Shown piece by piece: positions 36,239-64,000 of a stretch of DNA of 64,000 nt. The DNA comes from an uncultured Anaerolineales bacterium (GTDB lineage Bacteria > Planctomycetota > Phycisphaerae > FEN-1346). The DNA lies in contig CAZGKW010000013.1 of the NCBI GenBank assembly GCA_964526295.1, positions 31,468-95,467 of the forward strand. Direction: 5' to 3'. Within the stretch, counting starts at the first letter, position 1. Every line of letters starts with the position of its first letter. Below the pieces are notes generated by a model. The model was not told the DNA's origin and did no database searches. It saw nothing but the letters and a program-made list of their open reading frames with translations. The position numbers and the translations under genes are program-made.

Positions 36239-37276
36239 ATGTTCGAGGACAGAATGGTCGCGGTCGTCGTCCCGTGCTACAACGAGGAGACGCAGATCGA
36301 ACGGGTCCTGGCGACCATGCCGGACTTCGTCGACGCCATCATCGTCGTCGACGACGCCAGCCGCGACGCGAGTGGGGACGTCGTCCGACGCGCCATCGAC
36401 CGCGACGGGCCGGACGGACGGATCACTCTGGTCACGCACGATGTGAACCGCGGCGTCGGGGCCGCCATCGCCACCGGTTACAAGGAGGCCCTCCGGCGGG
36501 GCGTCGACGTGGCGGCCGTCATGGCCGGCGACGGCCAGATGGACCCCGGGGAGCTCGAGCTCCTCGTCGGGCCGGTGGCCCGAGGCGAGGCCGACTACGC
36601 CAAGGGCAACCGCCTCTTCTACCAGGGCGCCTGGGGCAACACCCCCAAGCATCGCTATATGGGCAACGCGTTCCTCTCGATGCTCACGAAGATCGCCAGC
36701 GGCTACTGGCACGTCGCCGACTCCCAGACCGGCTTCACGGCCATCAACCGCCGCGCCCTGGAGCTCGTGGACCTCGATCGGCTGTATCCCCGCTACGGGT
36801 ACCCGAACGATCTGCTGATCCGTCTGAACGTCTTCGACATGCGGGTCGCTGACGTCCACGTCCGGCCGGTCTACAACGTGGGAGAGTCCTCGAAGATGCG
36901 CCTGCGGCACGTCGTGCCGAAGCTCTCGTGGCTCATCCTGAAGCGGTTCGTCTGGCGCCTGAAACAGAAGTACGTGGTCCACGACTTCCATCCGCTGGTC
37001 CTCTTCTACGGGGCAGCGGGGTTCTTCACAGCGTCTTCCCTGGTGTTGTTCGTGCGGTTGATCTGGGTGTGGGCCGCCAAGGGCGACATCCCCGACATGA
37101 ACGCGCTCCTGTGGGCCATGTGCGTCATCACGTCGATCCAGCTCGGCCTGTTCGCCATGTGGTTCGACATGGAGATGAACCGCCACCTTCGCATCGTCAT
37201 CAACTCCCAGCCCCGGCCGGCCTGTCCGCTTCCCCCGGACGAGCTCCGCGAAGACGGCGGCGACGGAGAGGCATGA
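36239..37276 (+). CDS. GT2-family glycosyltransferase (DPM1/polyprenyl-phosphate sugar transferase-like) with C-terminal TM helices
   Basis: The N-terminal VVVPCYNEE...DDAS.D is a GT-A DxD fold. Two C-terminal TM helices are predicted. Confidence 0.75.
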   Translation: MFEDRMVAVVVPCYNEETQIERVLATMPDFVDAIIVVDDASRDASGDVVRRAIDRDGPDGRITLVTHDVNRGVGAAIATGYKEALRRGVDVAAVMAGDGQMDPGELELLVGPVARGEADYAKGNRLFYQGAWGNTPKHRYMGNAFLSMLTKIASGYWHVADSQTGFTAINRRALELVDLDRLYPRYGYPNDLLIRLNVFDMRVADVHVRPVYNVGESSKMRLRHVVPKLSWLILKRFVWRLKQKYVVHDFHPLVLFYGAAGFFTASSLVLFVRLIWVWAAKGDIPDMNALLWAMCVITSIQLGLFAMWFDMEMNRHLRIVINSQPRPACPLPPDELREDGGDGEA

Positions 37277-37365
37277 GCGCAAGCCGCGTGGAGCGGAGCG
37301 GGCGAAGGGACGCCTTGCCCGTGAGGAAACGACCCGCGACGTCGCCAAGAGGAAGCCTGATTCGC

Positions 37366-38148
37366 ATGGCAGCACCTCCGGACGGGTTCCAAAGACGCGC
37401 CATCATGGGAGGGCTTCCGCGTTCGGGGTCCAGCCTGATACGAAGCATTCTGAACGGCCATCCGCGGATTCTCGCGCCGCGGGAGACGGCGGTCTTTATC
37501 CACGACTTGGACGTACTCCGGTCGAAATCGCCCCGCATAGCACCGCGAATCGGTCGGCGGCTCGGGTTGCCGGCCGACCTCGTCTCGGAGCTGCTCGCGG
37601 AGGCGGGCTCGACCGTCGAGTTCTTCGACGAGTTGATGTTTGCGTGGCGCCGAACCACCGGGCGCTGGGACGCCGACGTGTGGCTTGAGAAGACACCCCG
37701 CAACTGCCGGCGCTGTGCCGCCATACGACGAGAGTGCCCCGACGCCGGGTTTATCTCGATCCTGCGGGACGGCCGCGACGTGGTCACCTCCGTCTTCCCG
37801 GGGAGGGAAGGCTATTACTGCAGCATCGACCGTTACGTCCGCGCGGTTCGCCAGATCATGGCGTTCGAGAACGACGCCCACCTCCTTGTCCGCTATGAGG
37901 CGTTCGTCGAATCGACGGAGGAGGTGCTCCGTGACATCACTAAGCACATCGGGGTTGAATGGTCCGACGAGATGATGGGATCTTGCCGCAGGCGGCCGGG
38001 GCTTTCGGGCAACCGGAAGGTCGAGGAACCCGTCACGGACCGCTGGGTCGGCCGATGGCGGCTGCCCGAGCACGCGGACCGCATCCGTGCCTTCTACGAG
38101 ACGCCGGAAGCCGTGGAGTGCCTCGCTCTGAGCGGTTACGAGCCGTGA
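37366..38148 (+). CDS. PAPS-dependent sulfotransferase
   Basis: It has a 5'-PSB loop (GLPRSGSS) and a 3'-PB-like region. An AGAGGAAG RBS sits upstream. Confidence 0.7.
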   Translation: MAAPPDGFQRRAIMGGLPRSGSSLIRSILNGHPRILAPRETAVFIHDLDVLRSKSPRIAPRIGRRLGLPADLVSELLAEAGSTVEFFDELMFAWRRTTGRWDADVWLEKTPRNCRRCAAIRRECPDAGFISILRDGRDVVTSVFPGREGYYCSIDRYVRAVRQIMAFENDAHLLVRYEAFVESTEEVLRDITKHIGVEWSDEMMGSCRRRPGLSGNRKVEEPVTDRWVGRWRLPEHADRIRAFYETPEAVECLALSGYEP

Positions 38149-38343
38149 CGATTGGGGGGGGCGCGAAATCTGCTTGTCATGTCTCACCTCGGCCGGGATA
38201 ATGTCACAAGAAGCGAGAGGCTGCGCAAGACTCCTGAAAGCCCGCTCCGAGCCGTGCCTTTCCCTCCCCGATCGCGCCCGGACCCGTAACGCAGCGCCGT
38301 TCGCCCTCAAAAGCCCTGGCAACGCGAACGGCAGGAGCAAGCC

Positions 38344-39876
38344 GTGGATTTGAGCAAGATGATCTTCGTGACCGGCTTCGCCCGGGGCGGCACCACGTGG
38401 CTCCGCAACTGTATCGCCTCGCATCCGCAGGTCTCGAAGATCGACAAGGAGCTGGTGCTCTTCAAGCGGTTCGGCGGGGACCGCAACGCCATCGAGGCGG
38501 AGCTGGAAGCGTTCATCGCCGACAGGGGCCTGGAGGGGCCCTACTTCGTCGAGAAAGGGCCAGCCAACGCTCCCCACGTCGCCAAGGCGTGCCGGGCGCT
38601 GCCCGAGGCGAAGTTCCTTTTCATCATCCGGGACCCCCGCGACGTATTCATCTCGCACAAGCGGGGAAAGCGCAAATGGATGGGCGGAAGCAACAGCGAA
38701 GTCGCCGGATGCATGCGCAAAACCCGTCGGTACTATGAAGGCTACATCGAGGGACGGGAGCAGCCCAACCTCATGCTGGTCCGCTACGAGGACCTGCACC
38801 AGGACTTCGAGACGACGCTCGGCCGGGTGCTGGAGTTCGTCGGCCTCCGGGCCGACCCCGCCATCGTGGAGCAGGCCTACGAGGCGAACGCCTTTTCCCG
38901 GGTGACCGGCGGCCGCCGGAAGGAGGACCGCGACGCCGCCGTCCGCAAGGGCTGCGTCGGCGACTGGCAGACGTTCCTTTCCGACCGCGAAGCCGCTTGG
39001 CACCGGAAGCAGACATTCTGGCGGGATTTCATGGCCAAGCACGGGTACGGGTGGCGGAAGCTGACCTTCGAGTCGATCCTGCAGACCTTGGCGGAGGCGG
39101 GGGTTCGCTTTCTCTCGGAAGACGACATCCTGGCCGCGCGACTCGATACCGAGCGGCTGAACGTGTTCCTGTATCACGACATCGACAACCTGTCCAGCCG
39201 CGCTGCTCGGGAGAGCCTGCGGCGAACCGTCGAGATCGAGGCGACCCTCGGCGCTGCCTCCACGACATACTTCCTGCCGCTCGACGAGTGGCGGTACCGG
39301 GGGCTCTCCCCCGAGGGGGTGGCCAAGATCGCACGGGAGGTCCTCGGCGCCTCGCCGCGCCATGCCGTGGGGCTCCACCTGAACGCCGCGGAGCGGTTCT
39401 TTCCGCCCGAGGCGCCGGCGGCGGACGACACGCATCCCGACATGGCCAAGGCCATTGCCTATCTCCATGCCCAGATCGACGCGTACGAGGAGCGGGGGTT
39501 CCGCCTCCGCAGCGCCACGGCCCACGGCTACGGCCGCAAGAAGAAACGCCCCAACAATCGCGACAGCGACGTGTTCCCCGCCGAGCTGGCGAAACGCGAC
39601 ATCGTATTGCTGGATCACCATATTAAGCGCCGCATTGAGAAGGCGGCGTCGCACCGGGCACGCTTTCTCGATGTGGGAGGGCCCCTTTCGGCACGCCGGA
39701 TGCCGAACGCGGGACGCCTCGACGACCCGGAGACGTATCGCCGGTTCCCGCCGAAAAGCGTCCTGGTCTTCCAGACCCACCCGGGCAACTACGACGTAAC
39801 CCGCGGCCTTTGCCTCGGCCAGCGCCGAAACGTCCCGTTAGGCGAGACCGACACGGTCGAAGAGGCCGTCGAGTAG
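38344..39876 (+). CDS. Sulfotransferase domain fused to a C-terminal deacetylase-like domain. The second domain has two paralogues in this island.
   Basis: The N-terminal GFARGGTTWL (5'-PSB) and RDPRD (3'-PB) motifs are present. The C-terminal 250 aa share motifs (LYHDID.., TYFLPL, GLHLN) with the ORFs at 42381 and 49177. Confidence 0.65.
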   Translation: MDLSKMIFVTGFARGGTTWLRNCIASHPQVSKIDKELVLFKRFGGDRNAIEAELEAFIADRGLEGPYFVEKGPANAPHVAKACRALPEAKFLFIIRDPRDVFISHKRGKRKWMGGSNSEVAGCMRKTRRYYEGYIEGREQPNLMLVRYEDLHQDFETTLGRVLEFVGLRADPAIVEQAYEANAFSRVTGGRRKEDRDAAVRKGCVGDWQTFLSDREAAWHRKQTFWRDFMAKHGYGWRKLTFESILQTLAEAGVRFLSEDDILAARLDTERLNVFLYHDIDNLSSRAARESLRRTVEIEATLGAASTTYFLPLDEWRYRGLSPEGVAKIAREVLGASPRHAVGLHLNAAERFFPPEAPAADDTHPDMAKAIAYLHAQIDAYEERGFRLRSATAHGYGRKKKRPNNRDSDVFPAELAKRDIVLLDHHIKRRIEKAASHRARFLDVGGPLSARRMPNAGRLDDPETYRRFPPKSVLVFQTHPGNYDVTRGLCLGQRRNVPLGETDTVEEAVE

Positions 39877-52337: not shown

Positions 52338-54521
52338 ATGAAGCATGTGGCGATTGTGTGGGCCTGTACGGTCCTGGCCGCAGCTACCGCAGACGCCGAC
52401 GTCCGGATCGAGGTCGTCCCGCCCTTCGTCCGCATCGGCCCGAAGGCCGCCGCCGACATGGGCCCCGCCGCGTCCAAGGTGATCGACCTGCGTGCCCCGC
52501 GTAACGGCATCGCCTCGGCCCAGGTGGTCGTCCGCGCGGAGGAGCCGTTCAGCGGGCCCTCGGCCTCGGCGAGCGATCTCACGGGCGAGACGGGCGGCCG
52601 CATCCCGGCCGAGGCCGTCCGCCTCCGCTACGGCCGCCTCGGAGGCGCCTATGTGCCCCTGCTGGACGAGCCCGCCTCCGGCGAAGCCCTCCACATGGTG
52701 TGGCTGACGGTCCGCGTGCCGGAAGACGCCCGGCCCGGGGCATACCGCGGGAAGCTTGACCTCCGCGGACCGTTCGGCTCGCGGACCGTGCCGATCGAGC
52801 TCCGGGTCCATGCCTGGCGCGTCGGCGATCCGCACCAGTGGCGGACCTGGGTCAACCTGCTCCAGTCGCCCGAGTCGGTGGCGGCCCACTACAAGGTGCC
52901 GCGGTGGTCCGACAGGCACTTCCGCCTGATGGAGAAGTCGCTGGCCCTGATGGGGGCGGCGGGCAACGACGTGCTGGGCATCTCGGCCGTCCGCGAGACC
53001 GTCTTCGGCGACGACCCGATGCTCGTCTTCCGCCGCACCGGCGACCGATGGGTCCCTGAGTTCGACCTCGTCGAGCGATACCTCGGCCTCTACGACCGCC
53101 ACGCCGGCGAGCCGGCCTACCTGGCCCTCCACGTGTGGTCCTACGGGATGTACTACAGGGGGGAGGGCCGCGACGGCGGCAAGGAGCAGGTCCGGGCCGA
53201 GACGATCCCCGTCCTGGAGCGCCGCGGCGGCGAACTCGTGCCGGTCGAGATGCCCATCTTCGGAGGGCCCGGCACGGGGCCCGTCTGGCGGGCCGTCGTC
53301 GAGGGCCTCAAGGCCCGCTTCGAGCGGCTCGGCTGGACGCGGACGCGGCTCCTGCTGGGGACAGGCGGCGACACATGGCCCTCGCCCGAGACGGTCGGCT
53401 TCTTCCAGACGATCGCCCCGGACGTCCGGTGGCGTGTCCTGACGCACGGCTGCGGGTGCCCCAAGTGGGGACCGACCCCCCTGGAGCGGACCCAGCCGAA
53501 CGGCATGGTCGTCGGGTACCTGGAGATCGCCCGGCGCCTCACGAACCACCGCGACCGGCTGCCCGGCCGCCCCGTCGTCTGCAACAGCCGCGACCGCGTC
53601 GGCTCGGACCCCTTCGCCTACCGCGGCCTGGCGAGCGTGACGGTCTTCGGCCACGGCTACGAGGGCATCTGCTGGAAGGGCATCGACTACTGGACCTACA
53701 CGACGCCGGAGGGCACCCGCCGCAACGCCCTCAACACGTACGTCCACTTCGGCAACATGGTGGGCGGGACGCCGCGGGCCATGTGCGCCCCCGGCCCCGA
53801 CGGGGCGGTCACCACGCAGCAGTTCGAACAGCTCCGCGAGGGGCTCCAGGAGTGCGAGGCCATGCTCGCCATCCGGGCCGGCCTGGACCGCCTGTACCCC
53901 CAGCCGGTCACCCGCTGCGACGTGCTGCAACTCGTGCTCAAGGACGCCCTCGCCCGGGAGGACCGGCGGCGAAAGGCCGAGGGCGAGTTCGTCGACGTGC
54001 AGGACCTGGAACTGTCGCTCCGGTTCCGCGATGGGGAGTTGCTGCCCGAGGTCCGCTCGAAGGCGTCGACCTACAACACGGGCCGCCACACCGCACGGGC
54101 GAAGGCCCTGCCCTCCAGCGACAGCCTGCGGCTCGAAGTCGAGGTGACCATCGCCGACGACCCATGGATTGCCGGCGGCACCGGCACCTTCGTTCTGGAC
54201 CTGGAGCGGGGCAATCCGTCCTGCACGGGACGCTTCGAGGGCGCCTTCAACGGCCACGAGCGGGAGGGGCCGGTCATCGGGACGTTCGTGCCGAACGGGT
54301 ACGCCGTGCCCACAGGCGAACCCCGGCCGGGGACGGAGGCCGTCGCCCGCGCCGAGGCCGTCATCGAAACGGCCGTCGGCGTGGTGAAGACCCGCAAGCC
54401 CGATTCGCGGACGACGGAGGCGTGGCCGGAAGCGTTGGACCGACTCTACGAGGAAGCGGCGGCCATCGAGGCGAGCGCCGCGGCGACCCAGGTGAGTGCG
54501 GACCCCCGCGCGGCGAAGTGA
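52338..54521 (+). CDS. Secreted 727-aa protein of unknown function. It is a possible glycan-processing enzyme.
   Basis: It has a cleavable-type signal peptide (MKHVAIVWACTVLAAATADA). It is large and globular and is the last gene of the island. Confidence 0.4.
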   Translation: MKHVAIVWACTVLAAATADADVRIEVVPPFVRIGPKAAADMGPAASKVIDLRAPRNGIASAQVVVRAEEPFSGPSASASDLTGETGGRIPAEAVRLRYGRLGGAYVPLLDEPASGEALHMVWLTVRVPEDARPGAYRGKLDLRGPFGSRTVPIELRVHAWRVGDPHQWRTWVNLLQSPESVAAHYKVPRWSDRHFRLMEKSLALMGAAGNDVLGISAVRETVFGDDPMLVFRRTGDRWVPEFDLVERYLGLYDRHAGEPAYLALHVWSYGMYYRGEGRDGGKEQVRAETIPVLERRGGELVPVEMPIFGGPGTGPVWRAVVEGLKARFERLGWTRTRLLLGTGGDTWPSPETVGFFQTIAPDVRWRVLTHGCGCPKWGPTPLERTQPNGMVVGYLEIARRLTNHRDRLPGRPVVCNSRDRVGSDPFAYRGLASVTVFGHGYEGICWKGIDYWTYTTPEGTRRNALNTYVHFGNMVGGTPRAMCAPGPDGAVTTQQFEQLREGLQECEAMLAIRAGLDRLYPQPVTRCDVLQLVLKDALAREDRRRKAEGEFVDVQDLELSLRFRDGELLPEVRSKASTYNTGRHTARAKALPSSDSLRLEVEVTIADDPWIAGGTGTFVLDLERGNPSCTGRFEGAFNGHEREGPVIGTFVPNGYAVPTGEPRPGTEAVARAEAVIETAVGVVKTRKPDSRTTEAWPEALDRLYEEAAAIEASAAATQVSADPRAAK

Positions 54522-54584
54522 CCGGCACGCCCGAGCGGCGGTCCGCCGACGCCGAGAGGGGGCCTCGCCCAAACCGTCGAGCCG

Positions 54585-55829
54585 TCATTCCTCCTCGGGG
54601 TAGCCATACTGGTCCGGCGGGGTCCCATGGGACTCAAGGACCCGAGGCCGGTCAAACCCTCGGCTTGAGGGGTCCACGCGGACCAGCCGCACATTGAAGG
54701 ACCAGCAATCTCCGAAGTCGTAGAGAAACTCCATCGCCTCGCCGTCGGCCAGCGGCAGATCGCCCAGTCGCACGTCCGCCGTGGAGGGTGACTCTTCACA
54801 GAACGGATGAAGGAACCTGGTGGATCCGCCGAAGCGGTCCGCGCACGTGAACGAATAGAGGTGGTCCAGGTCGAAGTTGAAGGCGTGCACGATGCCGACG
54901 GCCAGGTCATCCAGCGTCCGGCCGGCCGATAGCCCGATCCGCCGTCGCGCACGGCCCAGCGAGACGCCAAAGACCCACACCCCTTTCCGGAAAGCGGGCG
55001 CCGAAATCTCCAGGTCCTTCTGCCACGCGGGTACGAACGGCCCGAACACCTCCCGGAGACCCCCGGATGTCGTCGATTTCGGTTCGCCCTCGCACAAGAT
55101 ACGCAGCAAGTGGTCAGGGTCGCGCAGCGGCCGGAAGATCGCCCGGCCCCACGCCGTGCGGCGGATGGCCTTCGGCTGCCAGGTCCGGCCTTCCACCGGG
55201 GGCCCCTGGTCCACGGCCAACAGGCCGAACATGTCCATCAGCATAAGTTCCCAAGCGGTGGCCCATGCGCCCGCCACGTACCGTCCGCCTTGCACCTCGT
55301 CGTCGATTTGCAGGCCGTCCTTCGGAAGGGCCTCCCAGAGCATCAAGGCCGAAGTGAGACAGCCAAAAACCGGGGTTCGGCGCTCGCCCACGACCTCGGG
55401 CCGGCCGTTCAGCAGCCAAGCCTCCAGGAGCGCGAAGTACCGCTCGGTCGCATTGAGGCCCTGCCACAACTCGTGGACCTCTTCGTCCACAACCAGGCAG
55501 CCCTTTGTCCCGCCGGCCTTGGCCTGGATCAAGCCGCTGCACCGGCCCACGAGATACAGGCCGTGAAGGTTCGGATAGGACTGCTGTTGTGGGCGTTTCA
55601 AGCGGACCGCCAAAGGGCGGCCCATCCGCGAGTTGAGCTCCACCAGGCACGAGCCCGGCAACAAGCCCCGACGGGCGGTGCTCCGAACCCCTGCGGGCCC
55701 GATGAAGTCCAGCAGGACCCCGAAGTCGTGCAGGATAGGCCCGGGGTGCTCGTCGTCGATGGTCTGCTCGCGGAACGTACGAACCGCGTCCAGCGAGATC
55801 ACGGCCTGATTTCGACTTCTGGCCGCCAC
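54585..55829 (-). CDS. PRiA4b-ORF3-like domain protein
   Basis: The C-terminal FLYDFGDCWSFNV block resembles the YDFGDxWxH signature of PF07929-type proteins. The GTG start was chosen for a strong GGAAGGAGG RBS. Confidence 0.45.
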   Translation of the reverse strand: MAARSRNQAVISLDAVRTFREQTIDDEHPGPILHDFGVLLDFIGPAGVRSTARRGLLPGSCLVELNSRMGRPLAVRLKRPQQQSYPNLHGLYLVGRCSGLIQAKAGGTKGCLVVDEEVHELWQGLNATERYFALLEAWLLNGRPEVVGERRTPVFGCLTSALMLWEALPKDGLQIDDEVQGGRYVAGAWATAWELMLMDMFGLLAVDQGPPVEGRTWQPKAIRRTAWGRAIFRPLRDPDHLLRILCEGEPKSTTSGGLREVFGPFVPAWQKDLEISAPAFRKGVWVFGVSLGRARRRIGLSAGRTLDDLAVGIVHAFNFDLDHLYSFTCADRFGGSTRFLHPFCEESPSTADVRLGDLPLADGEAMEFLYDFGDCWSFNVRLVRVDPSSRGFDRPRVLESHGTPPDQYGYPEEE

Positions 55830-55894
55830 CGCGGGCCTCCTTCCGAAATACCTCCCGCAACGTCGCTCCGACAAGCGCCCTGACAGACGGCCGC

Positions 55895-56518
55895 TCAGCC
55901 CCCAAGGCCGGCGCGGGCGTGGGCCCGAAGGGCCTGGACGCGTTGCCGCCATTGGCGGTCGGCGGCCTCCCACCTCTTCACCTTCCCGCCGGCCCGGGCG
56001 GCCTTGATCCCGCCGATGATCAGGTTCAGCAAGCCGCCCAGGATACAGACGCCCCCCACGAGGAGCAGCGGCTCCAGTTCCGGATCGGCCTGCCCTGCGC
56101 CGAGGGCCACCACGCCGAGCGGCAGCGCCACCACCCCCACGATGACCCACCGGACACCCTTGCGGCGGGCCCGCCGCAGGCGAGGCAGGGCGACGCGCAT
56201 CCGGCCCTGGAACGTGGCGTACTGCTCGCGGGCCTCATCGAGGGCCAGCCGGGCCTGTTCCCGGGCGGCCATCGCCTGGTGACGCTGCATCAGGCCGTCC
56301 GTCGTGTCCCGGACGGCCGTCATGTGGTCCTGGATCTCGGTGACCCGGCCGTGGACCTCATCGATGGCCCGCTTGAGGACCGTCAGCTCGATCGAGCCGT
56401 CGGCGGCCCGCGTCACGCGGAAGACCGACCGGCAGCTCGAGCACCGGACGGCGTCGGACGTGTCCTCGACGTGCAGGTTGTCGCCGCAGTTCCTGCACTC
56501 GAAGGTCTGGAGTTCCAT
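55895..56518 (-). CDS. Zn-ribbon / coiled-coil / single-TM protein
   Basis: It has an N-terminal CxxC...CxxC ribbon (CRNCGDN...CSSCRS), a central coiled coil and a C-terminal TM helix. It starts 5 nt after the upstream gene's stop. Confidence 0.5.
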   Translation of the reverse strand: MELQTFECRNCGDNLHVEDTSDAVRCSSCRSVFRVTRAADGSIELTVLKRAIDEVHGRVTEIQDHMTAVRDTTDGLMQRHQAMAAREQARLALDEAREQYATFQGRMRVALPRLRRARRKGVRWVIVGVVALPLGVVALGAGQADPELEPLLLVGGVCILGGLLNLIIGGIKAARAGGKVKRWEAADRQWRQRVQALRAHARAGLGG

Positions 56519-56523
56519 GCGGC

Positions 56524-57294
56524 CTACTTTCGGAGCCCCTGGGCGAGTGCTGTGACCTTCCGGCTGATCTCGTCGGCCCGACGGGCGGCCCCGGCGGCCC
56601 GCTCCTCGCCGGGCGACGCCGGGTCGATGCGGCCCGCCTCCTCCGAGAGCTGCTGCACCTCGGCCGCCAGCATGCCGTACTCGGCCGACCGCCCGACCGT
56701 GCCTGCGTGCGGCAGCGAGTAGGTGAGCTTCTCGCGGAGGGCCTTCAGGCGCGCGGCCAGGTCGGCCGTCGCCTCGGATGAGGCCAGACGGTCCTCCTGG
56801 GTGCGGATCGCCGCGGCCAGGGCCGGCGGCGCCGGGACGCCCTCCGGCACGGGCTCGCCGCCCGCCGCCGCCCCCGCACGGGCCAGGTAGAGGAACACGA
56901 AGATGCCCAGCGCCGCGGCGGCCAGCAGCACCTGCGTCGCCAAGTGCAGCCGGTCGTACAGCTCGCTGCTCTCTCCGGCCGCGTGGACCAGCATCAGGGC
57001 GAAGCTGATGATCGCATAGATGATGACGACGACGTTGACGGCCGGGAGGACGCCGCCCGTCGCGCCGGACGGCATGGACCGGCGGATGGCGTAGAAGGCA
57101 TAGGCCCCCAGGCCGCCCCAGACCACCAGCGCGAGCACCTCGGTCCAGAGCATGTTCCGCCAGAACTGGGGCGTGCGGTCGTCCGTCTCGACCAGCAGCA
57201 GGGCGAGGACCACGATCGCCGCCGCCGTGATGATGTACCCCAGAACCGACGCGACCCACACGCCGTGGATGGGCCTGGCCATGGCGGTCTCCAT
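56524..57294 (-). CDS. 4-TM membrane protein with a C-terminal coiled-coil
   Basis: Its ATG overlaps the SPFH gene stop by 1 nt (TGATG). Four hydrophobic helices are predicted. Confidence 0.5.
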   Translation of the reverse strand: METAMARPIHGVWVASVLGYIITAAAIVVLALLLVETDDRTPQFWRNMLWTEVLALVVWGGLGAYAFYAIRRSMPSGATGGVLPAVNVVVIIYAIISFALMLVHAAGESSELYDRLHLATQVLLAAAALGIFVFLYLARAGAAAGGEPVPEGVPAPPALAAAIRTQEDRLASSEATADLAARLKALREKLTYSLPHAGTVGRSAEYGMLAAEVQQLSEEAGRIDPASPGEERAAGAARRADEISRKVTALAQGLRK

Positions 57295-58493
57295 CACAGG
57301 TCCTTCAGGATCTCGGCCTTCTTGGCGTCGTAATCGTCCTGCGTGATGAGCCCGCCGTCGAGGAGGGCCTTGAGCTGCTGGAGCTTGGCCACGGGGTCGG
57401 CCTGGCCGGCCGGGGCGGCGCCCCCGCCGGGCGCGGCGGGCGGTCCAGGCGGAGGCGTCTCGGGGGCTTGGGGCGCCTGCGCCCCGGTCGCCGACTCGGG
57501 CGGGGGTTCGGCCGAGGGTGGGGGCTCGCCGGACGGGGGCGGAGTCCTGCCCTTCGGCCCTTCGCCCCCCTGGCCTTCCTGCCCCTGTTGGCCCGGCCGG
57601 CCGGGCTGGACGTTCAGGTTGCTCCCCATCTGCTGACCGACCGGCATGCCGGCCCCCAGGCCGACGCCTAGGCCCAGCCCCGCCGAAAGGAGCTGCCCGG
57701 CCCCGCCGCCCTCGTTCGAGGCGGCCTGGTCGAGGGTGTCGAAGGTCCGCATCGTCGTGTAGGCGGGGCCGACGTTCGCGCCGGAGATCTGCTCGATCTC
57801 CATCCGCCGACGGAGCACCTCCTGGAACTGCTCCTTCTCCTCCTGCGGGATGCTGATGCTGACGACGTTGAAGTTGATGACTTCGATGCCGAACCGGCCG
57901 AACTCTTCCCGCATGTCGCTCTCGGTGAACTGCGACAGGTCGTTGAGGCGGGCGGCGATGTCGAAGATCGACGCCCCCCGCTCGACGAAGTACTTCGCCA
58001 GGGCATCGGAGAACCGCTGAACGATCAGGCCGATGAAGTAGTCGAAGATCTTGCCGCTGTCGGCCGACGGGAGGGTCCCCACGATCTGCGTGATGAACGC
58101 CCGGGAGTCCTCGATCCTGAGGCCCCACGTCCCCCGGGCCCGGACGCTGATGGGGAAGTTGTACCGCGGGTCCACCAGGTTCACCGGCGAGGGCGTGCCC
58201 CACCGGAGGTCGCGCTTCACGTGACGGTTGACGAACCAGACCTCGGCCGTAAACGGCGTCTGCCCGCCGAACGGCCGATTGATGAGCCGGCGCAGCAGGG
58301 GCAGGTTGCCCGTGGCCAGCGAGTGGGTGCCCGGCCCGAACAAGTCGAGGGCCTTCCCGCCCTTGACGAGCAGGGCCTCCTGGGCCTGGTTGACGATGAG
58401 CTGGGTCCCGAGGCGAAGCTCTTCCCCGGGGAACTTGAAGGCCAGCTCCTCGTCGCTGGCAGCATCGTGCTTGACGCGATCGATCAGTGCCAT
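57294..58493 (-). CDS. SPFH/band-7 (stomatin/flotillin-like) protein with a Pro/Gly-rich linker and a C-terminal SHOCT domain
   Basis: It has an SPFH core followed by a low-complexity PPP-rich linker. The terminal LKALLDGGLITQDDYDAKKAEIL is a SHOCT-like motif. Confidence 0.75.
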   Translation of the reverse strand: MALIDRVKHDAASDEELAFKFPGEELRLGTQLIVNQAQEALLVKGGKALDLFGPGTHSLATGNLPLLRRLINRPFGGQTPFTAEVWFVNRHVKRDLRWGTPSPVNLVDPRYNFPISVRARGTWGLRIEDSRAFITQIVGTLPSADSGKIFDYFIGLIVQRFSDALAKYFVERGASIFDIAARLNDLSQFTESDMREEFGRFGIEVINFNVVSISIPQEEKEQFQEVLRRRMEIEQISGANVGPAYTTMRTFDTLDQAASNEGGGAGQLLSAGLGLGVGLGAGMPVGQQMGSNLNVQPGRPGQQGQEGQGGEGPKGRTPPPSGEPPPSAEPPPESATGAQAPQAPETPPPGPPAAPGGGAAPAGQADPVAKLQQLKALLDGGLITQDDYDAKKAEILKDL

Positions 58494-58699
58494 GACGTGG
58501 TCCCCTCAGATCACTTGCCGCTCCCGCGAGGACGATACGGCAGCAGGCCACGGCGGGACACCCCTCGGCGTACGCCTCGAAGGGCCGCCTCTGGGTACCA
58601 TAGGCCCCCGCCCGGCGGGGCGTCAACCCAAAAGGGCCTCGGCATCTCCCGCAGGCCGGTCGCGGGCGGCCCGTCCGCCCAAAATGGGGCGGAAACTGC

Positions 58700-58728
58700 T
58701 TACACCGGCCGCCCAGGGATGCTAGAAT
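58700..58728 (+). promoter_or_regulatory. Candidate sigma70-type promoter with an extended -10 (TGcTAGAAT) for the Ubl operon
   Basis: TGCTAGAAT lies ~125 nt upstream of the Ubl ATG in a 350-bp divergent intergenic region. The -35 element is weak (TTACAC). Confidence 0.25.
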
Positions 58729-58851
58729 TGCCGCGGGTGCATTTGAGGGGCCGGCGCGCCTGGTCGTCACCGCCCACGGCGACGACCAGATGGGCAATAC
58801 GTGCGAATTCAGACACCGGCTGGTGCGTATGAGCAGGTGAGGCAGGGGTCG

Positions 58852-59145
58852 ATGGCCGACGAGGACGAGAACATCAACGTCGAGGTCTGGGACGCCACCG
58901 GAAACAAGCGGATCACCGCCAGCCTCCCGCGAAACGCACCGGTCAACCGCATCCTGGTCCTGCTGGTGGACCGGATGAACCTGCCGCGGCACAGCCCCGA
59001 CGGCCAGTTGATGAGCTACAAGTTCCACCACAAGGCGAGCGGGCGGCAACTCCTGGACGAGGAGACTCTCGAGGACGCCGGCGTCCACGAAGGCGACGTC
59101 CTCAGAATCCAGCCGGAGATCACGGCGGGGGGCCGCGAGCCATAA
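58852..59145 (+). CDS. Ubiquitin-like beta-grasp protein (pro-form). A di-glycine is followed by a 3-residue tail (…ITAGG-REP).
   Basis: The GRQLLDEETLEDAGVHEGDVLRIQPE block parallels ubiquitin's [26 protein letters not shown]. The core ends in GG+REP. The ATG at 58852 has a GTGAGG RBS. Confidence 0.6.
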   Translation: MADEDENINVEVWDATGNKRITASLPRNAPVNRILVLLVDRMNLPRHSPDGQLMSYKFHHKASGRQLLDEETLEDAGVHEGDVLRIQPEITAGGREP

Positions 59146-59292
59146 GCAGGTAACGCGATTCAGCGCATCGGGTCTCCGTCCCCGCCGGGCCCGCCGGGGC
59201 AGGGACGGGAACACGTCCGCCCTTGTCGCGGTGTGCACAGAGACCCACCGCACGATGAGCGACGCCTCGCATGAACACGACGGGAATGCCCC

Positions 59293-60480
59293 GTGAGTGA
59301 GACCCCCGCTATCCGGATCGACGGCGCCGAGCCGGAGGCGCGGTTCAGCCGCTTCGAGCTCATCTCCTGGTGGGACCAGAGGCGCCTGCGGGAGGCCAAG
59401 GTCCTCGTCATCGGGGCCGGGGCCCTGGGCAACGAGCTCGTTAAGAACGCCGCCCTCCTGGGCATCGGGAACCTCCTCGTCGCCGACATGGACCGCATCG
59501 AGGGGTCGAACCTGTCGCGGTCGGTCCTGTTTCGGGCCGAGGACGAGGGCCGGCCCAAGGCGGAGGTGGCCTGCGAATCGGCCCGGGCGATCTACCCGGA
59601 CGTCGCCGCCCACCCCTTCGTCGGCAACGTGGTCCACGACCTCGGACTCGGGCCCTACCTCTGGGCCGACGTGGTCCTCGGGGGGCTTGACAACCGTGAG
59701 GCCCGCGTGGCGGTCAACCGCGGGGCCGCCCTGGCCGGGAAGACGTGGATCGACGGGGCCATCGAGGTCTTGAGCGGCCTGGTGCGGGTCTTCGACCCGG
59801 CCGGCGGGCCGTGCTACGAGTGCACCATGAGCGAGGTGGACTGGAAGATCCTCCAGGGCCGCCGGTCCTGCGCCCTGCTGACGCGGGAGGAGATGGAGAC
59901 GGGCAAGGTGCCCACCACGCCGACGACCGGCAGCGTCGTCGCCGGCCTCCAGGTCCAGGAGGCAGTGAAGCTCCTGCACGGCCTCGACGTGCGGACGGGC
60001 GAAGGCGTGCGGCTCGACGGCATCACGGGCGGATTCGAGCCCGTCCGCTACCCCCGGAAGGCCGATTGCGCGGGGCACGAACGGCTGGAGCGCATCGAGC
60101 CGCTGGACGCCGGCGCCGCCGACGTGACCGTCGGGGAGCTGCGGGCGAGGGCCCAGGCCGACCTCGGGCCGGCAGCGACGCTCGAGCTGTCGCGCGACAT
60201 TATCGCGCGGCTCGTGTGCCCCCAGTGCGGCGCGGCCGAGGATCGGTTCGCCTCGCTGGGCCGGGTGACCGTCTCGGAGGCGGCGTGCCCGGCGTGCGGC
60301 CAGGTCCGCATTCCCGAGACGCTCTTCGAGCTGGAGGCCGAGGAAGGCCTGGCCGATAGGACGTTCGCAGCGCTCGGCGTCCCGCCGATGGACGTCGTTA
60401 TCGCCCGGCAGGGCGACGACGCGGTCGGGTACCTGTTCGACGGCGACGCGGAGGCCGTGCTGGGCCCGCTGGCCCGGTGA
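59293..60480 (+). CDS. ThiF/MoeB/E1-like adenylyltransferase with Zn-binding CxxC pairs
   Basis: It has a Rossmann GxGxxG (VLVIGAGALGNELVKN) and the CYEC...C / CPQC...CPAC motifs. Confidence 0.7.
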   Translation: MSETPAIRIDGAEPEARFSRFELISWWDQRRLREAKVLVIGAGALGNELVKNAALLGIGNLLVADMDRIEGSNLSRSVLFRAEDEGRPKAEVACESARAIYPDVAAHPFVGNVVHDLGLGPYLWADVVLGGLDNREARVAVNRGAALAGKTWIDGAIEVLSGLVRVFDPAGGPCYECTMSEVDWKILQGRRSCALLTREEMETGKVPTTPTTGSVVAGLQVQEAVKLLHGLDVRTGEGVRLDGITGGFEPVRYPRKADCAGHERLERIEPLDAGAADVTVGELRARAQADLGPAATLELSRDIIARLVCPQCGAAEDRFASLGRVTVSEAACPACGQVRIPETLFELEAEEGLADRTFAALGVPPMDVVIARQGDDAVGYLFDGDAEAVLGPLAR

Positions 60481-60557
60481 TCGGCGGACCCGACGCCGCG
60501 TGACGTCTGCGGTCGCCGGGGCGCCGGCGCGGACGCGACCCATGAGGAGGACCCCAG

Positions 60558-61874
60558 GTGAGTGACGCCGACCAGCGCGGGGGCGGTTCGTCCGAGGCGG
60601 GCGGTCGGGCCGGCAGCGGACCGGACTGCCGGCGGATCGACCCGTCGGGGCTCCGGGAGGCGGCGTTTCCCGCCCCGGAGTCGCCGGAGTATCGGGTCCA
60701 CTTCAGCGAAGACGCCTACGAGCAGATGAAGGCCCACGCCGCCACCACCGACGAGGTGGAGCTGTGCGGCGTCCTGGTGGGCGAGGTCTGCAAGGACGAG
60801 CAGGGACCGTACCTGCGGATCACGGGGGCCATCGAGGGCCAGGGGGCCAAAAACTACGGGGCCCAGGTCACGTTCACCCACGAGACCTGGAGCCACCTGC
60901 ACGAGGTCAAGGACGCCCGCTACCCGGACACGCGGATCGTGGGCTGGTATCACACGCACCCGGGGTTCGGCGTGTTCCTGTCGAGCATGGACACGTTCAT
61001 CCAGGAGAACTTCTTCAGCGAGCCGTACCAGGTGGCGGTGGTCATCGAGACGCGCCGCGGGGTGGAAGGCTGCTTCGTGTGGCAGGACGGCCGGTGCGTG
61101 CCGCTGCGGCGGTACTGGGTCGGCGACCGGGAGGTCTCGCTGACGCCGGGCGAGGCGGAGGCGTTCGAGGGGTCGCCGGACCGGGCCAAGGCCGAGGACG
61201 TCCCGGTGGAGAACGAGGACGAGGCGGGGCCCCTGCTGCCTCCCTCGATGCTGACGTACGCCCTGGTCGTGCTGGTCTTCGTGGGCGGGGTGATGATCGG
61301 GGCGTTCTTCCTGGGCACGAAGGGGAACGGCGCGGCCGAGCGGGCCGCCGAGAACGAGGTCTATTCGATCCTCGAGTCGGCCGCCCTGGGCACCCTGGCC
61401 GCCGAGGACCTGGAGCGGGTGCGGAGCGAGCTCGAGGCCGTCCGGCGGAATCTGGACGAAGGCAAGGCCGACCTGGCCGTAGAACAGGTGGAGCGGTTGA
61501 CGGCGGAGGTAGACTCCCTCAAGGGGGACTACGCCGAGCGGCGGTCGGTCCGGCGGGCCCAGTTGGCCCATCTGGCCGGCAAGCGCCGAAGCCTCAGCGA
61601 CCGCCTCGAGGTGGTCTGGCGGAACCAGGCGGAGCTGCAACGGGTCGTCGCCGACCTTTATCTGCTGCGGCTCGTCGACGCCCTGCAAAGTCTGGGCGGC
61701 ACGGACCCGTCGAAGTGGAGCGAGGCCGAGCGCCTGGCCGTCAAGCAGATGCTGGACCGGACGCTCCAGCTCGACCCCGGCAACAAGGCGACCATCGAGC
61801 GGGCCGTGCCCGGCCTGGTCGAGCACTTCTATCCGCCCAAGGAGGCGGCCAAGAAGGACAAGCCGGACGATTAG
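60558..61874 (+). CDS. JAB/MPN (JAMM) metallopeptidase with a TM helix and a C-terminal coiled-coil
   Basis: It has the E..H.H..(7)S..D JAMM motif (GWYHTHPGFGVFLSSMD). A hydrophobic helix LTYALVVLVFVGGVMIGAFFLG follows. A GAGGAGG RBS sits before the GTG. Confidence 0.7.
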   Translation: MSDADQRGGGSSEAGGRAGSGPDCRRIDPSGLREAAFPAPESPEYRVHFSEDAYEQMKAHAATTDEVELCGVLVGEVCKDEQGPYLRITGAIEGQGAKNYGAQVTFTHETWSHLHEVKDARYPDTRIVGWYHTHPGFGVFLSSMDTFIQENFFSEPYQVAVVIETRRGVEGCFVWQDGRCVPLRRYWVGDREVSLTPGEAEAFEGSPDRAKAEDVPVENEDEAGPLLPPSMLTYALVVLVFVGGVMIGAFFLGTKGNGAAERAAENEVYSILESAALGTLAAEDLERVRSELEAVRRNLDEGKADLAVEQVERLTAEVDSLKGDYAERRSVRRAQLAHLAGKRRSLSDRLEVVWRNQAELQRVVADLYLLRLVDALQSLGGTDPSKWSEAERLAVKQMLDRTLQLDPGNKATIERAVPGLVEHFYPPKEAAKKDKPDD

Positions 61875-61952
61875 GGCCGGGGCGGCCGCGCCGGCTGGGC
61901 CTGTGCCGGTCCGGATGAGCGGCGGCGAGGCCGCGCTCCGAGGACGTGACCC

Positions 61953-63014
61953 ATGGCGGACATCCGCATCACCCGAAACGAGCTGAACGATCCGGCCATC
62001 GACGAGGTCATCGGCCTGGAGCGGCAGTTCCGTCAGGCGACCGGCGAGGCCGTCGAGGACATCCCCACCCCCTTCTACTACAACCCGCTCTTCTACTACT
62101 CGCTGGCGGGCCTGGCGGGGGGCCTGATCGCCTGGGGCACCCACGAGCCGTTCTACTCCGACCGCGAGTCCATGACCCCCCTCCCGTTCATCAACGACTT
62201 TCTCCTGTTCGGGCCGGTAGCGGCGTTCATCGGGCTGTTCATCGGCGTTTCCTACGGCCTGTCGAACCGAAACGTCAAGCAGGCGCTCTACTGCGGCGTC
62301 GTGGGGCTGGGCGTCGGGCTGGGGGCGACGGTGGTGACGACCTTCGCCGCCAACTGGCTCTACAACATCACCGCGACCATGGCGGTGACGATGTCCGGGG
62401 CACGGCACGACGGCATCTACCAGCCGCGCGGGGTGGCCTTCTTCGTTCAGACGTGCGGCCGGGGGATCGCCTGGGCCATCGTGGCGACGGGGGGCGGCGT
62501 GGGGCTGGGCATCAGCCTGAAGAGCCCCCACCGGATCCTGAACGGCCTGGCGGGGGCCCTCGTCGGGGGGCTGCTGGGCGGCCTCCTGTTCGATCCCATC
62601 GACCGGTTCATCTACGGCTGGGGGGAGGAGGCCGCCACGAGCCGCGGCATCGGCATCGCCGCCATCGGCCTCCTGGTCGGTTTCTTCGTCGGCCTGTTCG
62701 AAAACATCTCGAAGGAGGCTTGGTTCCAGATGCTCCGCGGGCCGCTGGCCGGAAAGCAGTTCATCCTGTTCAAGAGCCCGATGGTCGTCGGCTCGGCCCC
62801 GAAGTGCGACATCTATATCTTCAAGGACCCGGTCATCGAGCCCTGCCACGCCTCCATCACGAAGACGGGGACCAAGTACCTCCTGAGGGACGAAGGGACC
62901 GAGGCCGGCACGTTCGTCAACGGCCGGCGCATCGACCGGTACATTCTCCAGCCCGACGACTTCGTCACCATCGGAGAGGCGGTCCTGAAGTACCACGAGC
63001 GGCACCAGTCGTAG
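61953..63014 (+). CDS. Polytopic membrane protein with a C-terminal FHA domain
   Basis: It has about 6 TM helices. The C-terminal FHA signature is YIFKDPVIEPCHASI...GTFVNGRRI...DDFVTIGE. Confidence 0.65.
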   Translation: MADIRITRNELNDPAIDEVIGLERQFRQATGEAVEDIPTPFYYNPLFYYSLAGLAGGLIAWGTHEPFYSDRESMTPLPFINDFLLFGPVAAFIGLFIGVSYGLSNRNVKQALYCGVVGLGVGLGATVVTTFAANWLYNITATMAVTMSGARHDGIYQPRGVAFFVQTCGRGIAWAIVATGGGVGLGISLKSPHRILNGLAGALVGGLLGGLLFDPIDRFIYGWGEEAATSRGIGIAAIGLLVGFFVGLFENISKEAWFQMLRGPLAGKQFILFKSPMVVGSAPKCDIYIFKDPVIEPCHASITKTGTKYLLRDEGTEAGTFVNGRRIDRYILQPDDFVTIGEAVLKYHERHQS

Positions 63015-63032
63015 CCGGCGAGAGGCAGATTC

Positions 63033-63950
63033 ATGGCCGAACCGGGCGAGAAGCGGCGGATGACGTGCCCGCACTGCCGGGTCACGGTCGAGTTCCCGGC
63101 CCGGCTGGCCGGGCACGAGCGTCCGTGCCCGAAGTGTCTGCGGGCCATCACCCTGGAGGCCCGCCCGGCGACGGGGGCGACGCCGGCCCCGGGTCCCTCG
63201 CCGGCCGCGGCCGTCCCGCCGCCGGCGGCGGGTCCGCTTTCGGAGGGCCCCGGCGCCGGTCCCCCGCCCTCGCCGGAGAAGGAGCGGCACGCCTTCACGC
63301 CGGTCCGGCCGCCGGGCAAGGAGGGGCCGGCGTTCCTGGAGCGGATGCGGGCCAACCGGGTCCTGGCCGGCCGGATCTGCCCCGGCTGCGGACAGGAGAT
63401 CGACCTGGGCGACGACGTGTTCAACTGCCCGAGCTGCAACGTGACGATGCACTTCGCCTGCCGCGAGCAGCACGGCGGCTGCGCGAACCCGGACTGCCCG
63501 GCCTATCAGGCGGCCGCCCCTGCGGCGGCTGCGGCCCCTGCGGGGGGGGCCGCGGCCCCCCCCGCAGGGGCCGACCTCGTGCCGTGCCGGTTCTGCGGCG
63601 AACCGATCACCCGGCAGGCCCGCCGGTGCCTCTATTGCGGCGAGTATCAGCAGCGCGTCCACCCGCGGTTCCGCGCCCGCCAGGATCCCCTGTCGCAGAA
63701 GGCCACCACGGCGATGGTGCTCGGGATCCTGGGGCTGGTCTTCTCGACCGTGACGTGCTGCCCGCCGCTGGGCATCGGCCTCGGGACCGGCGCCATCGTC
63801 CTCGGGGGCAAGGCCAAGGCGTCGACGACCTCGGCCGGCAAGGCCAACGCCGGCTTCATCATGGGGATCATCGCGGTGGTCCTGGGCGGGCTGGGCCTCG
63901 TGTGGCTCCTGTTCATGATCGGGGTCAATTTCCAGGCGAACGGGTACTAG
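63033..63950 (+). CDS. Multi-zinc-ribbon protein with a Pro/Ala-rich linker and a C-terminal double-TM (DUF4190-like) anchor
   Basis: It has four CxxC pairs (CPHC/CPKC; CPGC/CPSC; ...CRFC/CLYC). The C-terminal hydrophobic helices include a CCPP segment. Confidence 0.55.
   Translation: MAEPGEKRRMTCPHCRVTVEFPARLAGHERPCPKCLRAITLEARPATGATPAPGPSPAAAVPPPAAGPLSEGPGAGPPPSPEKERHAFTPVRPPGKEGPAFLERMRANRVLAGRICPGCGQEIDLGDDVFNCPSCNVTMHFACREQHGGCANPDCPAYQAAAPAAAAAPAGGAAAPPAGADLVPCRFCGEPITRQARRCLYCGEYQQRVHPRFRARQDPLSQKATTAMVLGILGLVFSTVTCCPPLGIGLGTGAIVLGGKAKASTTSAGKANAGFIMGIIAVVLGGLGLVWLLFMIGVNFQANGY
63532..63573. repeat. Perfect ~42-bp palindrome containing G8 and C8 homopolymer tracts, inside the Zn-ribbon gene
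   Basis: The left arm is cggcccctgcgggggggg, the central spacer is ccgcgg, and the right arm is ccccccccgcaggggccg. The arms are exact reverse complements. Confidence 0.7.
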
Positions 63951-64000
63951 TGTAGTGTATCAAGCAGATTGCACATTATTCAGTACGGCCCGTGCCCGTT

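Follow-up and report, generated by a model that had tools for sequence, protein, structure and literature searches.

The window, by which we mean the whole 64-kb stretch of DNA analysed here (64,000 nt), has a G+C content of 67-75% and carries near its right end an operon of the bacterial Ubl-E1-JAB-RING system. The gene of interest, hereafter the host gene, was delimited as an open reading frame and mapped for Pfam domains, and the genes and protein domains at the locus are as follows.

58801-59145, + strand: YukD-like Ubl, upstream in the same operon
59293-60480, + strand: ThiF/E1, upstream in the same operon
60558-61874, + strand: JAB/MPN peptidase, upstream in the same operon
61953-63014, + strand: membrane FHA protein, upstream in the same operon
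63033-63950, + strand: host gene, RING-finger protein of 305 aa
N-terminal part of the host gene (before aa 113), + strand: N-terminal zinc ribbon (CxxC...CxxC), then a Pro/Ala linker
63369-63500 (aa 113-156), + strand: Prok-RING_1 finger, above the Pfam gathering score
63585-63647 (aa 185-205), + strand: second zinc ribbon
63702-63893 (aa 224-287), + strand: DUF4190-like membrane region with two hydrophobic helices

Relatives share the upstream gene order (Ubl, E1, JAB/MPN, FHA), and in the closest of them the orthologue of the host gene is followed on its 3' side by a second RING gene (198 aa), a RING-trypsin fusion and then a UQ_con E2 gene. The window ends 50 nt past the stop codon of the host gene, and the description of this gene in an earlier note as the last of its operon is, in view of the RING, RING-trypsin and E2 genes that lie downstream of the orthologue in relatives, probably wrong.

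Between the Prok-RING_1 finger and the second zinc ribbon, the Ala/Pro/Gly linker of the host protein is encoded in part by a perfect palindrome that sits in frame, with the following components.

63532-63573, identical on both strands: perfect palindrome of 42 bp, equal to its own reverse complement CGGCCCCTGCGGGGGGGGCCGCGGCCCCCCCCGCAGGGGCCG
63532-63552, + strand: left arm CGGCCCCTGCGGGGGGGGCCG, carrying the rare Pro codon CCT (63537-63539) and the G8 tract
63542-63549: G8 tract, in the left arm
63550-63555: palindrome centre CCGCGG, read from the sequence
63553-63573, + strand: right arm CGGCCCCCCCCGCAGGGGCCG, carrying the C8 tract and the rare Ala codon GCA (63564-63566)
63556-63563: C8 tract, in the right arm
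63514-63534, + strand: imperfect direct copy of the left arm, 16/21 identical at an 18-nt offset and about 80% complementary to the right arm

On rechecking, the coordinates of the 42-bp exact inverted repeat and its description as containing G8 and C8 tracts proved exact. The placement of its peptide in the protein stood in part: the stretch is indeed in frame and rich in Ala, Pro and Gly, but it joins the RING finger to the second ribbon, rather than a zinc ribbon to the membrane part, and the first transmembrane segment starts about 45 residues further on. The two arms of 21 nt each meet without a spacer, and the axis of symmetry falls between 63552 and 63553, after the first base of the GCG codon of Ala174. 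The encoded peptide, AAPAGGAAAPPAGA, runs from A167 (codon positions 2-3) to A180, plus the first base of the D181 codon. Pairing is complete within the palindrome (21/21) and ceases at once outside it. The first outer pair is already mismatched (63531 G vs 63574 A), and complementarity returns at only 9 of the 30 positions further out, so that the repeat has sharp edges. An inverted repeat that is perfect throughout and whose pairing breaks off suddenly on either side is the form looked for in a template-switch product. A second, 9-bp stem lies immediately upstream (63510-63532), and the first linker of the same gene also holds a perfect palindrome, of 18 bp (63215-63232).

A long perfect palindrome in a contig of this kind might be an artefact of the sequencing library or of assembly, such as a fold-back chimera or a misjoin; the earlier note had raised an assembly artefact. 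The contig is of the MAG type, and NCBI has a single record of the host protein, on a 95-kb contig. We used the Logan contigs, which derive from a k=31 de Bruijn graph built separately for each SRA run (PMC12424806); such a graph keeps every 31-mer seen at least twice. Looking up the upstream FHA protein led to the Logan contig SRR7048227_11387 (10,070 nt), seen in two samples, which equals window positions 53492-63561 with zero mismatches and ends at 63561. When the k=31 graph of the window was simulated, the only breaks within 60001-64000 fell after 63561 and between the 31-mers starting at 63543 and 63544, and shortening the simulated palindrome by 1, 3 or 5 pairs moved the left break to 63562, 63564 or 63566. 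The end of the Logan contig is thus the break predicted for the full 42 bp, which makes it a base-exact fingerprint of the palindrome in the reads. The contig also shows no alternative branch at 63552/63553, as a palindrome-free true allele would give, and a fold-back chimera would have run on as the reverse complement of the upstream sequence, which is absent here. The reading frame continues unbroken across both homopolymers into the conserved zinc ribbon and the membrane region.

On the right-hand side, look-ups of the C-terminal fragment expected on the adjoining Logan contig (starting from 63546, from 63579, and as an M-start version) gave no match, and the right junction is supported only indirectly. 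The full host protein likewise had no exact match in the contig index, which is likely because k=31 assemblies split the gene at the palindrome. We conclude that the palindrome is real and not the product of one assembler; with an independent assembly identical over 10,070 nt and broken at the single predicted base, an artefactual origin is largely removed from consideration and we regard it as very improbable. Two practical points arise from this result. The end position of a contig from a k-mer graph can be used as a base-exact, read-level check on a palindrome without recourse to raw reads, and, as a corollary, genes with palindromes longer than k are systematically split, and thus hidden, in k-mer assemblies.

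The phase of the reading frame relative to the axis, derived from the sequence, gives the palindrome a particular codon geometry. The first base of each codon pairs with the second base of its mirror codon, the second with the first and the third with the third. In this phase the mirror image of an Ala codon (GCN) is again Ala and that of a Pro codon (CCN) is Gly (GGN), a symmetry that the peptide follows exactly (A-P-A-G-G-A-[A]-A-P-P-A-G-A). High-GC Ala/Pro/Gly linkers are therefore built-in quasi-palindromes in which only the third positions need matching, and a reverse-complement copy of such a linker still reads as Ala/Pro/Gly, with no stops. To our knowledge this codon symmetry (Ala with Ala, Pro with Gly), which would make high-GC linkers natural substrates for fold-back copying, has not been described. 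Five of the 14 codons in the palindrome are non-preferred, all three Gly codons being the minor GGG, and the T:A pair at 63539/63566 is contributed by two rare codons, CCT (5.4% of Pro codons) and GCA (3.4% of Ala codons), with a joint probability of 0.0018. In its sequence this pairing of rare codons looks like the result of complement copying at the DNA level rather than of codon preference.

The same geometry lends some credit to coincidence, that is, to GC-rich Ala/Pro/Gly coding DNA having become self-complementary by luck, as two-thirds of any Ala run is self-complementary automatically and the 18-bp palindrome of the first linker belongs to the same gene. Perfect palindromes in the window with exact arm lengths of 1 to 9 nt numbered 13326, 4052, 917, 280, 80, 26, 13, 5 and 3, a drop of about 3-fold per added nucleotide; the three cases with 9-nt arms are the runners-up in the 64 kb, and beyond them stands the single case at arm 21. 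As a deliberately generous null model we drew on the codon mix of the window's own Ala/Pro/Gly-rich stretches over 36 million simulated positions, which gave P(arm>=12)=1.6e-5, P(arm>=15)=1.3e-6 and P(arm>=18)=1.1e-7. Each further codon multiplies the null probability by about 0.07, and extrapolation puts it at about 7e-9 per position for arm 21. For the Ala/Pro/Gly linkers of the window, in total about 113 codons (about 340 nt) within 41 kb of confidently coding sequence, this null still expects only about 2e-6 arm-21 palindromes per window, which for a whole genome amounts to roughly 1e-4 to 1e-3, and the T:A pair from rare codons lowers the expectation further. Given the peptide, the complementarity of all seven third-codon-position pairs has a probability of 1.7e-3. 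Chance is not viable as an explanation of the palindrome; the earlier claim that it was unlikely to arise by chance is upheld even under the linker-codon null, and we give pure compositional coincidence next to no weight.

Relatives come from Planctomycetota and allied MAGs. A scan of GTDB representative genomes returned relatives 30-40% identical, in Planctomycetota MAGs; the RING orthologues are 43-48% identical to the host protein, and the best match to the neighbouring FHA protein is 65% identical, so that the collections searched contained no close relative. Six orthologues were compared (L001, L002, L006, L026, L028 and L029). All six keep the RING finger and the CRFC[GR]E zinc ribbon that flank the linker, and the linkers themselves vary in sequence and in length, the distance between these shared landmarks ranging from roughly 35 to 67 residues; the linker is hypervariable and presumably disordered. 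Neither the palindrome nor the linker peptide is conserved in any of the six. The earlier note had held that orthologues conserving the peptide without the nucleotide palindrome would speak against its reading, and the absence of both is a stronger form of that outcome. The longest perfect stems anywhere in the six orthologous genes are of 5-7 bp. With the flanks conserved and no palindrome or structure in the orthologous linkers, the comparison of these sequences indicates that the palindrome is specific to this lineage and falls where the protein is least constrained.

Short counterparts of the arm ends can nevertheless be recognised in some of these linkers. The outer end of the left arm has a counterpart, GCS CCT GYG, in L001 and L006. 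At the other end, the outer right-arm codons A-G-A before DLVPC align with A-G-T/A-G-G in orthologues, with A-G-x-[DN]-L-V-P-C in L026, and P-[PS]-A-G-G-P occurs in L002 and L006 at an equal distance from the zinc ribbon. This distribution suggests that a short ancestral inverted repeat may have expanded inward. Within the window, matches as good as that of the imperfect direct copy at an 18-nt offset occur at 15 of 63,960 positions, and the 10-mer GCCCCTGCGG is found in the 64 kb only at 63516 and 63534, plus its reverse complement at 63562. The upstream unit 63516-63535 is 80% complementary to 63552-63571, and thus provides the kind of seed repeat from which a template switch could start.

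In bacteria, template switching is known to make inverted repeats perfect that had been imperfect (PMC5941160, PMC7202029), as followed with quasi-palindrome reporters in E. coli (PMC7202029) and in proteobacterial inverted repeats (PMC5941160). In yeast coding genes it rewrites several adjacent codons (PMC8604942), it can make perfect RNA hairpins de novo in one step (PMC8794818), and it is reported to expand repeat arms (PMC13100816). At the present locus, a polymerase would briefly have copied a neighbouring or nascent strand during replication or repair (template switching, quasi-palindrome 'correction', arm expansion). The nascent strand would have folded back, or used the opposite strand, copied about 21 nt as reverse complement and then returned. 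In this way the arms of a short inverted repeat already present (GCCCCTGCGG ... CCGCAGGGGC) probably grew inward until they met. The 21 nt (7 codons) would have been written in reverse complement and would still have been in-frame Ala/Pro/Gly, which implies that the protein tolerated the copying event. Either arm could be the copied one, both arm ends having plausible counterparts in orthologues. An arm of 21 nt is at the long end of usual single short-range template switches, and more than one step may have been involved.

Sharp edges with a perfect interior are expected of a copying event rather than of gradual selection. The data above show that the palindrome is real and not due to chance, that it lies in an unconserved linker, and that it has the codon symmetry and local repeats described. 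We infer the template-switch origin, its direction and the absence of a selected function, and we assign a probability of roughly 0.6 to the reading of the palindrome as a lineage-specific template-switch product in a permissive linker, with no selected function. Such an event would have left several by-products: an mRNA hairpin of 19-21 bp, all G/C, which translating ribosomes have to open; two runs of 8 nt that are prone to slippage; and a tendency to in-frame deletion. Each arm is exactly 7 codons, and deletion of one or both keeps the frame.

Selection for structure gives a different account of the same repeat, in which a hairpin or DNA dyad is retained for a function, as a translation pause before the membrane anchor, as an element that stabilises or processes the operon mRNA, or as a dyad-symmetric DNA binding site. 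Folding predictions are extreme. The 42-mer has a predicted RNA fold of -51.9 kcal/mol (z -6.65 vs shuffles), far beyond what shuffled sequences reach, so that the 'very stable hairpin' proposed in the earlier note is borne out by predicted folding, and its predicted DNA fold is -30.2 kcal/mol. The stem is perfect with zero decay, it is located exactly at a domain boundary, and a 9-bp stem directly precedes it, all of which would suit a selected element. However, no structure is found in the six orthologous linkers, and the three whose RNAs were folded did no better than shuffles (z -0.33, +0.89 and +0.79). There is no Rfam match, U-tract or promoter, 42 bp is much longer than usual operators, and the pairing is strictly Watson-Crick down to the rare codons, as would come from DNA copying. 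A centre composed only of G and C would be kinetically poor for cruciform extrusion. A functional role for the hairpin or cruciform named in the earlier note found no positive support, with six orthologues keeping neither palindrome nor peptide, and we think it unlikely that the structure is a selected one; the palindrome as such is probably not a selected device. The perfect 21-pair stem with zero decay could equally reflect recent origin or active maintenance, and a predicted hairpin of -52 kcal/mol within a coding region may not be neutral.

Searches for known signals at the site were negative within their scope. No match at E<=1 was obtained with the covariance models of Rfam 15 over 62500-64000, and promoter and terminator scans returned nothing at the palindrome. 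The stem is followed on its 3' side by ACCTCGTGCC on the + strand and by CGCAGCCGCC on the - strand, with no U-tract, and an intrinsic (Rho-independent) terminator was rejected on this ground and on the empty terminator scan. A -1 programmed ribosomal frameshift signal has a slippery heptamer 5-9 nt ahead of a stable structure, and the site was rejected as one since its only slippery-like strings, G GGG GGG and C CCC CCC, lie within the arms and not upstream of the stem; the product of the -1 frame is generic off-frame sequence. We also set aside a G-quadruplex (too few G-tracts), an in vivo cruciform (the centre is G/C-only), a protelomerase-type target (the palindrome is read in frame within a conserved gene, and the conserved sequence to either side of it is colinear) and a hidden overlapping gene (alternative frames stay open here as an artefact common in high-GC DNA).

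The two homopolymers invite a further reading, namely phase variation, in which slippage in G8 or C8 would toggle between a membrane-anchored and an out-of-frame protein. These are the only coding homopolymers of at least 8 nt in the 64 kb, the other 8-nt run of the window (at 38154) lying just past the stop of ORF 36928-38148. When G8 or C8 loses one base, a stop arises at residue 239, and the second zinc ribbon and both transmembrane helices are lost. If either tract gains one base, the product has 307 residues and an Arg-rich tail, and opposite length changes in the two tracts restore the frame. The locus thus has, as contingency loci do, coding homopolymers of about 8 nt whose change in length alters the product. 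Against a switch, the Logan k=31 contig crosses G8 and runs into C8 unbranched and is identical in two samples, although minor variants might have been lost to bubble-popping. Throughout the six orthologous genes, the homologous site included, G and C runs never reach 7 nt, the longest being 6 nt. The frameshifted products resemble ordinary high-GC off-frame sequence, and the tracts are explained as mirror images of each other. We know of no tract-based phase variation in Planctomycetota. The phase-variation idea of the earlier note therefore remains without positive support, the contig being unbranched at G8 and the orthologous runs reaching at most 6 nt, and we hold such a switch to be improbable. 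The combined proposal, that a maintained coding hairpin, its stem keeping G8 and C8 in register, doubles as a two-tract slippage switch between an anchored and an anchor-less RING protein or paces its translation, is similarly improbable. Were it true, this would be the first contingency or regulatory element known from this phylum and system, and a selected hairpin or slippage switch would add a layer of control to the poorly understood bacterial Ubl-E1-JAB-RING system.

As a last alternative, a small mobile palindromic element of the REP/MITE kind could have inserted here or left a footprint, or break repair through a hairpin could have filled in a palindrome, and both the sharp edges and the GC-rich perfect dyad are reminiscent of REP-type hairpins. 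We found no further copies of the palindrome in the 64 kb, even with 3 mismatches allowed; a REP/MITE-like mobile palindrome is a multiple-copy element, and it was rejected on this single site. A metagenome scan for the 15-nt stem core with a free loop returned 17 contigs, which resolve into two hairpin loci on low-GC contigs and share the stem core with our palindrome. In these hairpins similarity ends exactly at the demanded 15-mers, loops and flanks differ, and one locus that was checked lies inside a span matched by an organelle-like large-subunit rRNA gene with group I introns. These matches were accordingly rejected as relatives of the palindrome, and the corresponding scan of viral contigs gave no match. 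The arms moreover share sequence with their own surroundings (the upstream copy and the orthologue motifs), which speaks for a local origin, and we judge a mobile or break-repair origin highly improbable.

Under the template-switch reading, the palindrome is a clean worked example rather than a discovery. It illustrates that a statistically outrageous intragenic palindrome may be real and yet need no function, and the codon symmetry described above may help to explain the growth and turnover of low-complexity linkers in GC-rich bacteria.

Among known systems, REP/BIME palindromes and intrinsic terminators resemble the palindrome in being G+C-rich dyads that can form hairpins, but ours is intragenic, in frame and single in the 64 kb, with no U-tract and no match in the Rfam or terminator scans. 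Simple-sequence contingency loci are familiar from the poly-G/poly-C phase variation of Neisseria, Haemophilus and Campylobacter. The likeness to them lies in a G8 and a C8 inside a coding region, where a one-base change truncates or recodes the C-terminal part. Here, in contrast, the tracts are not kept in relatives and are mirror images created by the palindrome, no heterogeneity in tract length was seen in the Logan k=31 contig (in which minor variants could have been popped), and the host is not of a type known for such a strategy. The coding palindromes of nematomorph mitochondria (PMC6649704) are, like this one, perfect inverted repeats in frame with both arms translated. In Nematomorpha there are many repeats per genome, of up to 284 bp, and the arms encode conserved protein under selection (PMC6649704), whereas ours, at 42 bp, is the only such case in the window and belongs to a bacterial gene, in a linker of low complexity that is not conserved. 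Compared with documented template switches and quasi-palindrome products, the event proposed here is inferred from one sequence without an ancestor, and its 21-nt arms without a spacer are longer and tighter than in most documented cases. In its other features it resembles them closely, with a perfect repeat, sharp ends, an imperfect repeat nearby as a plausible seed, adjacent codons apparently rewritten together, and a long stem without stepwise compensatory evolution.

The linkers of the gene for the RING-membrane protein (305 AA; 63033-63950, plus strand) contain self-complementary sequence in addition to the perfect 42-bp palindrome at 63532-63573, as follows:

63215-63232: a second perfect palindrome of 18 bp, CCCGCCGCCGGCGGCGGG, within the gene's first Pro/Ala linker
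63510-63532: a predicted 9-bp stem that includes a single G-U pair, GCGGCCGCC/GGCGGCUGC, directly 5' of the big hairpin

Only three palindromes with arms of 9 nt were present in the whole window, and the location of one of them in the first linker fits the idea that the linkers of this gene are prone to self-complementarity. With the 9-bp stem adjoining the big hairpin, the linker RNA is predicted to fold as two adjacent hairpins, and the right arm of the main palindrome can also pair with the upstream unit, giving alternative pairings. Apart from the G8 and C8 tracts of the main palindrome, a single homopolymer of at least 8 nt was found in the window:

38154-38161: G8, lying 6 nt past the stop codon of an ORF (36928-38148) and also inside a long ORF on the minus strand (37006-39780)

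A k=31 de Bruijn assembly must break wherever a perfect palindrome exceeds k in length, and as a result palindrome-bearing genes are split and lost from indexes of exact proteins. The Logan contig SRR7048227_11387, identical to window 53492-63561, ends at window position 63561, which gives a base-exact confirmation of the palindrome boundary at the level of the reads.

A scan of metagenome contigs for the stem core of the main palindrome, with the loop left free, matched 17 contigs of 41-57% G+C carrying hairpins composed only of G and C, with stems of approximately 25 bp (GTCCCCCTCCCCCCTGCGGGGGGGG...), of which two examples are:

L023, 12338-12377: G/C-only hairpin
L012, 723-766: G/C-only hairpin

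Two loci in this set shared the same stem, with loops of different length (10 vs 14 nt) and different flanks. The L023 hairpin falls within the match to a large-subunit rRNA gene split by several group I introns, an organelle-like arrangement, and the source of this contig is perhaps an algal plastid. Collectively, these hairpins have the look of palindromic, GC-rich insertions that form one small family, and they bear no relation to the window locus.

The palindrome-bearing gene belongs to an operon that is preceded by a divergent neighbor:

57294-58493, minus strand: SPFH/Band-7 protein whose C terminus carries a SHOCT domain, encoded a short distance 5' of the Ubl gene
58801-63950: operon encoding, in order, a YukD-like Ubl, a ThiF E1, a JAB protein, a membrane FHA protein, and the RING-membrane protein

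The SPFH/Band-7 neighbor was also found on the Logan contig. In three loci of relatives (L026, L028, and L029), the operon extends further downstream with genes for a 198-AA RING protein, a RING-trypsin fusion of approximately 450 AA, and a UQ_con E2. Separately, a distant homologue from a prokaryotic metagenome (P0005) joins Prok-RING_1 to UQ_con (E2) as a RING-E2 fusion. Homologues of the FHA protein numbered more than 300, spread over Planctomycetota, Lentisphaerae, and other MAGs. The Ubl conjugation cassette is widespread and seemingly uncharacterized, and it looks to be of greater interest than the main palindrome.
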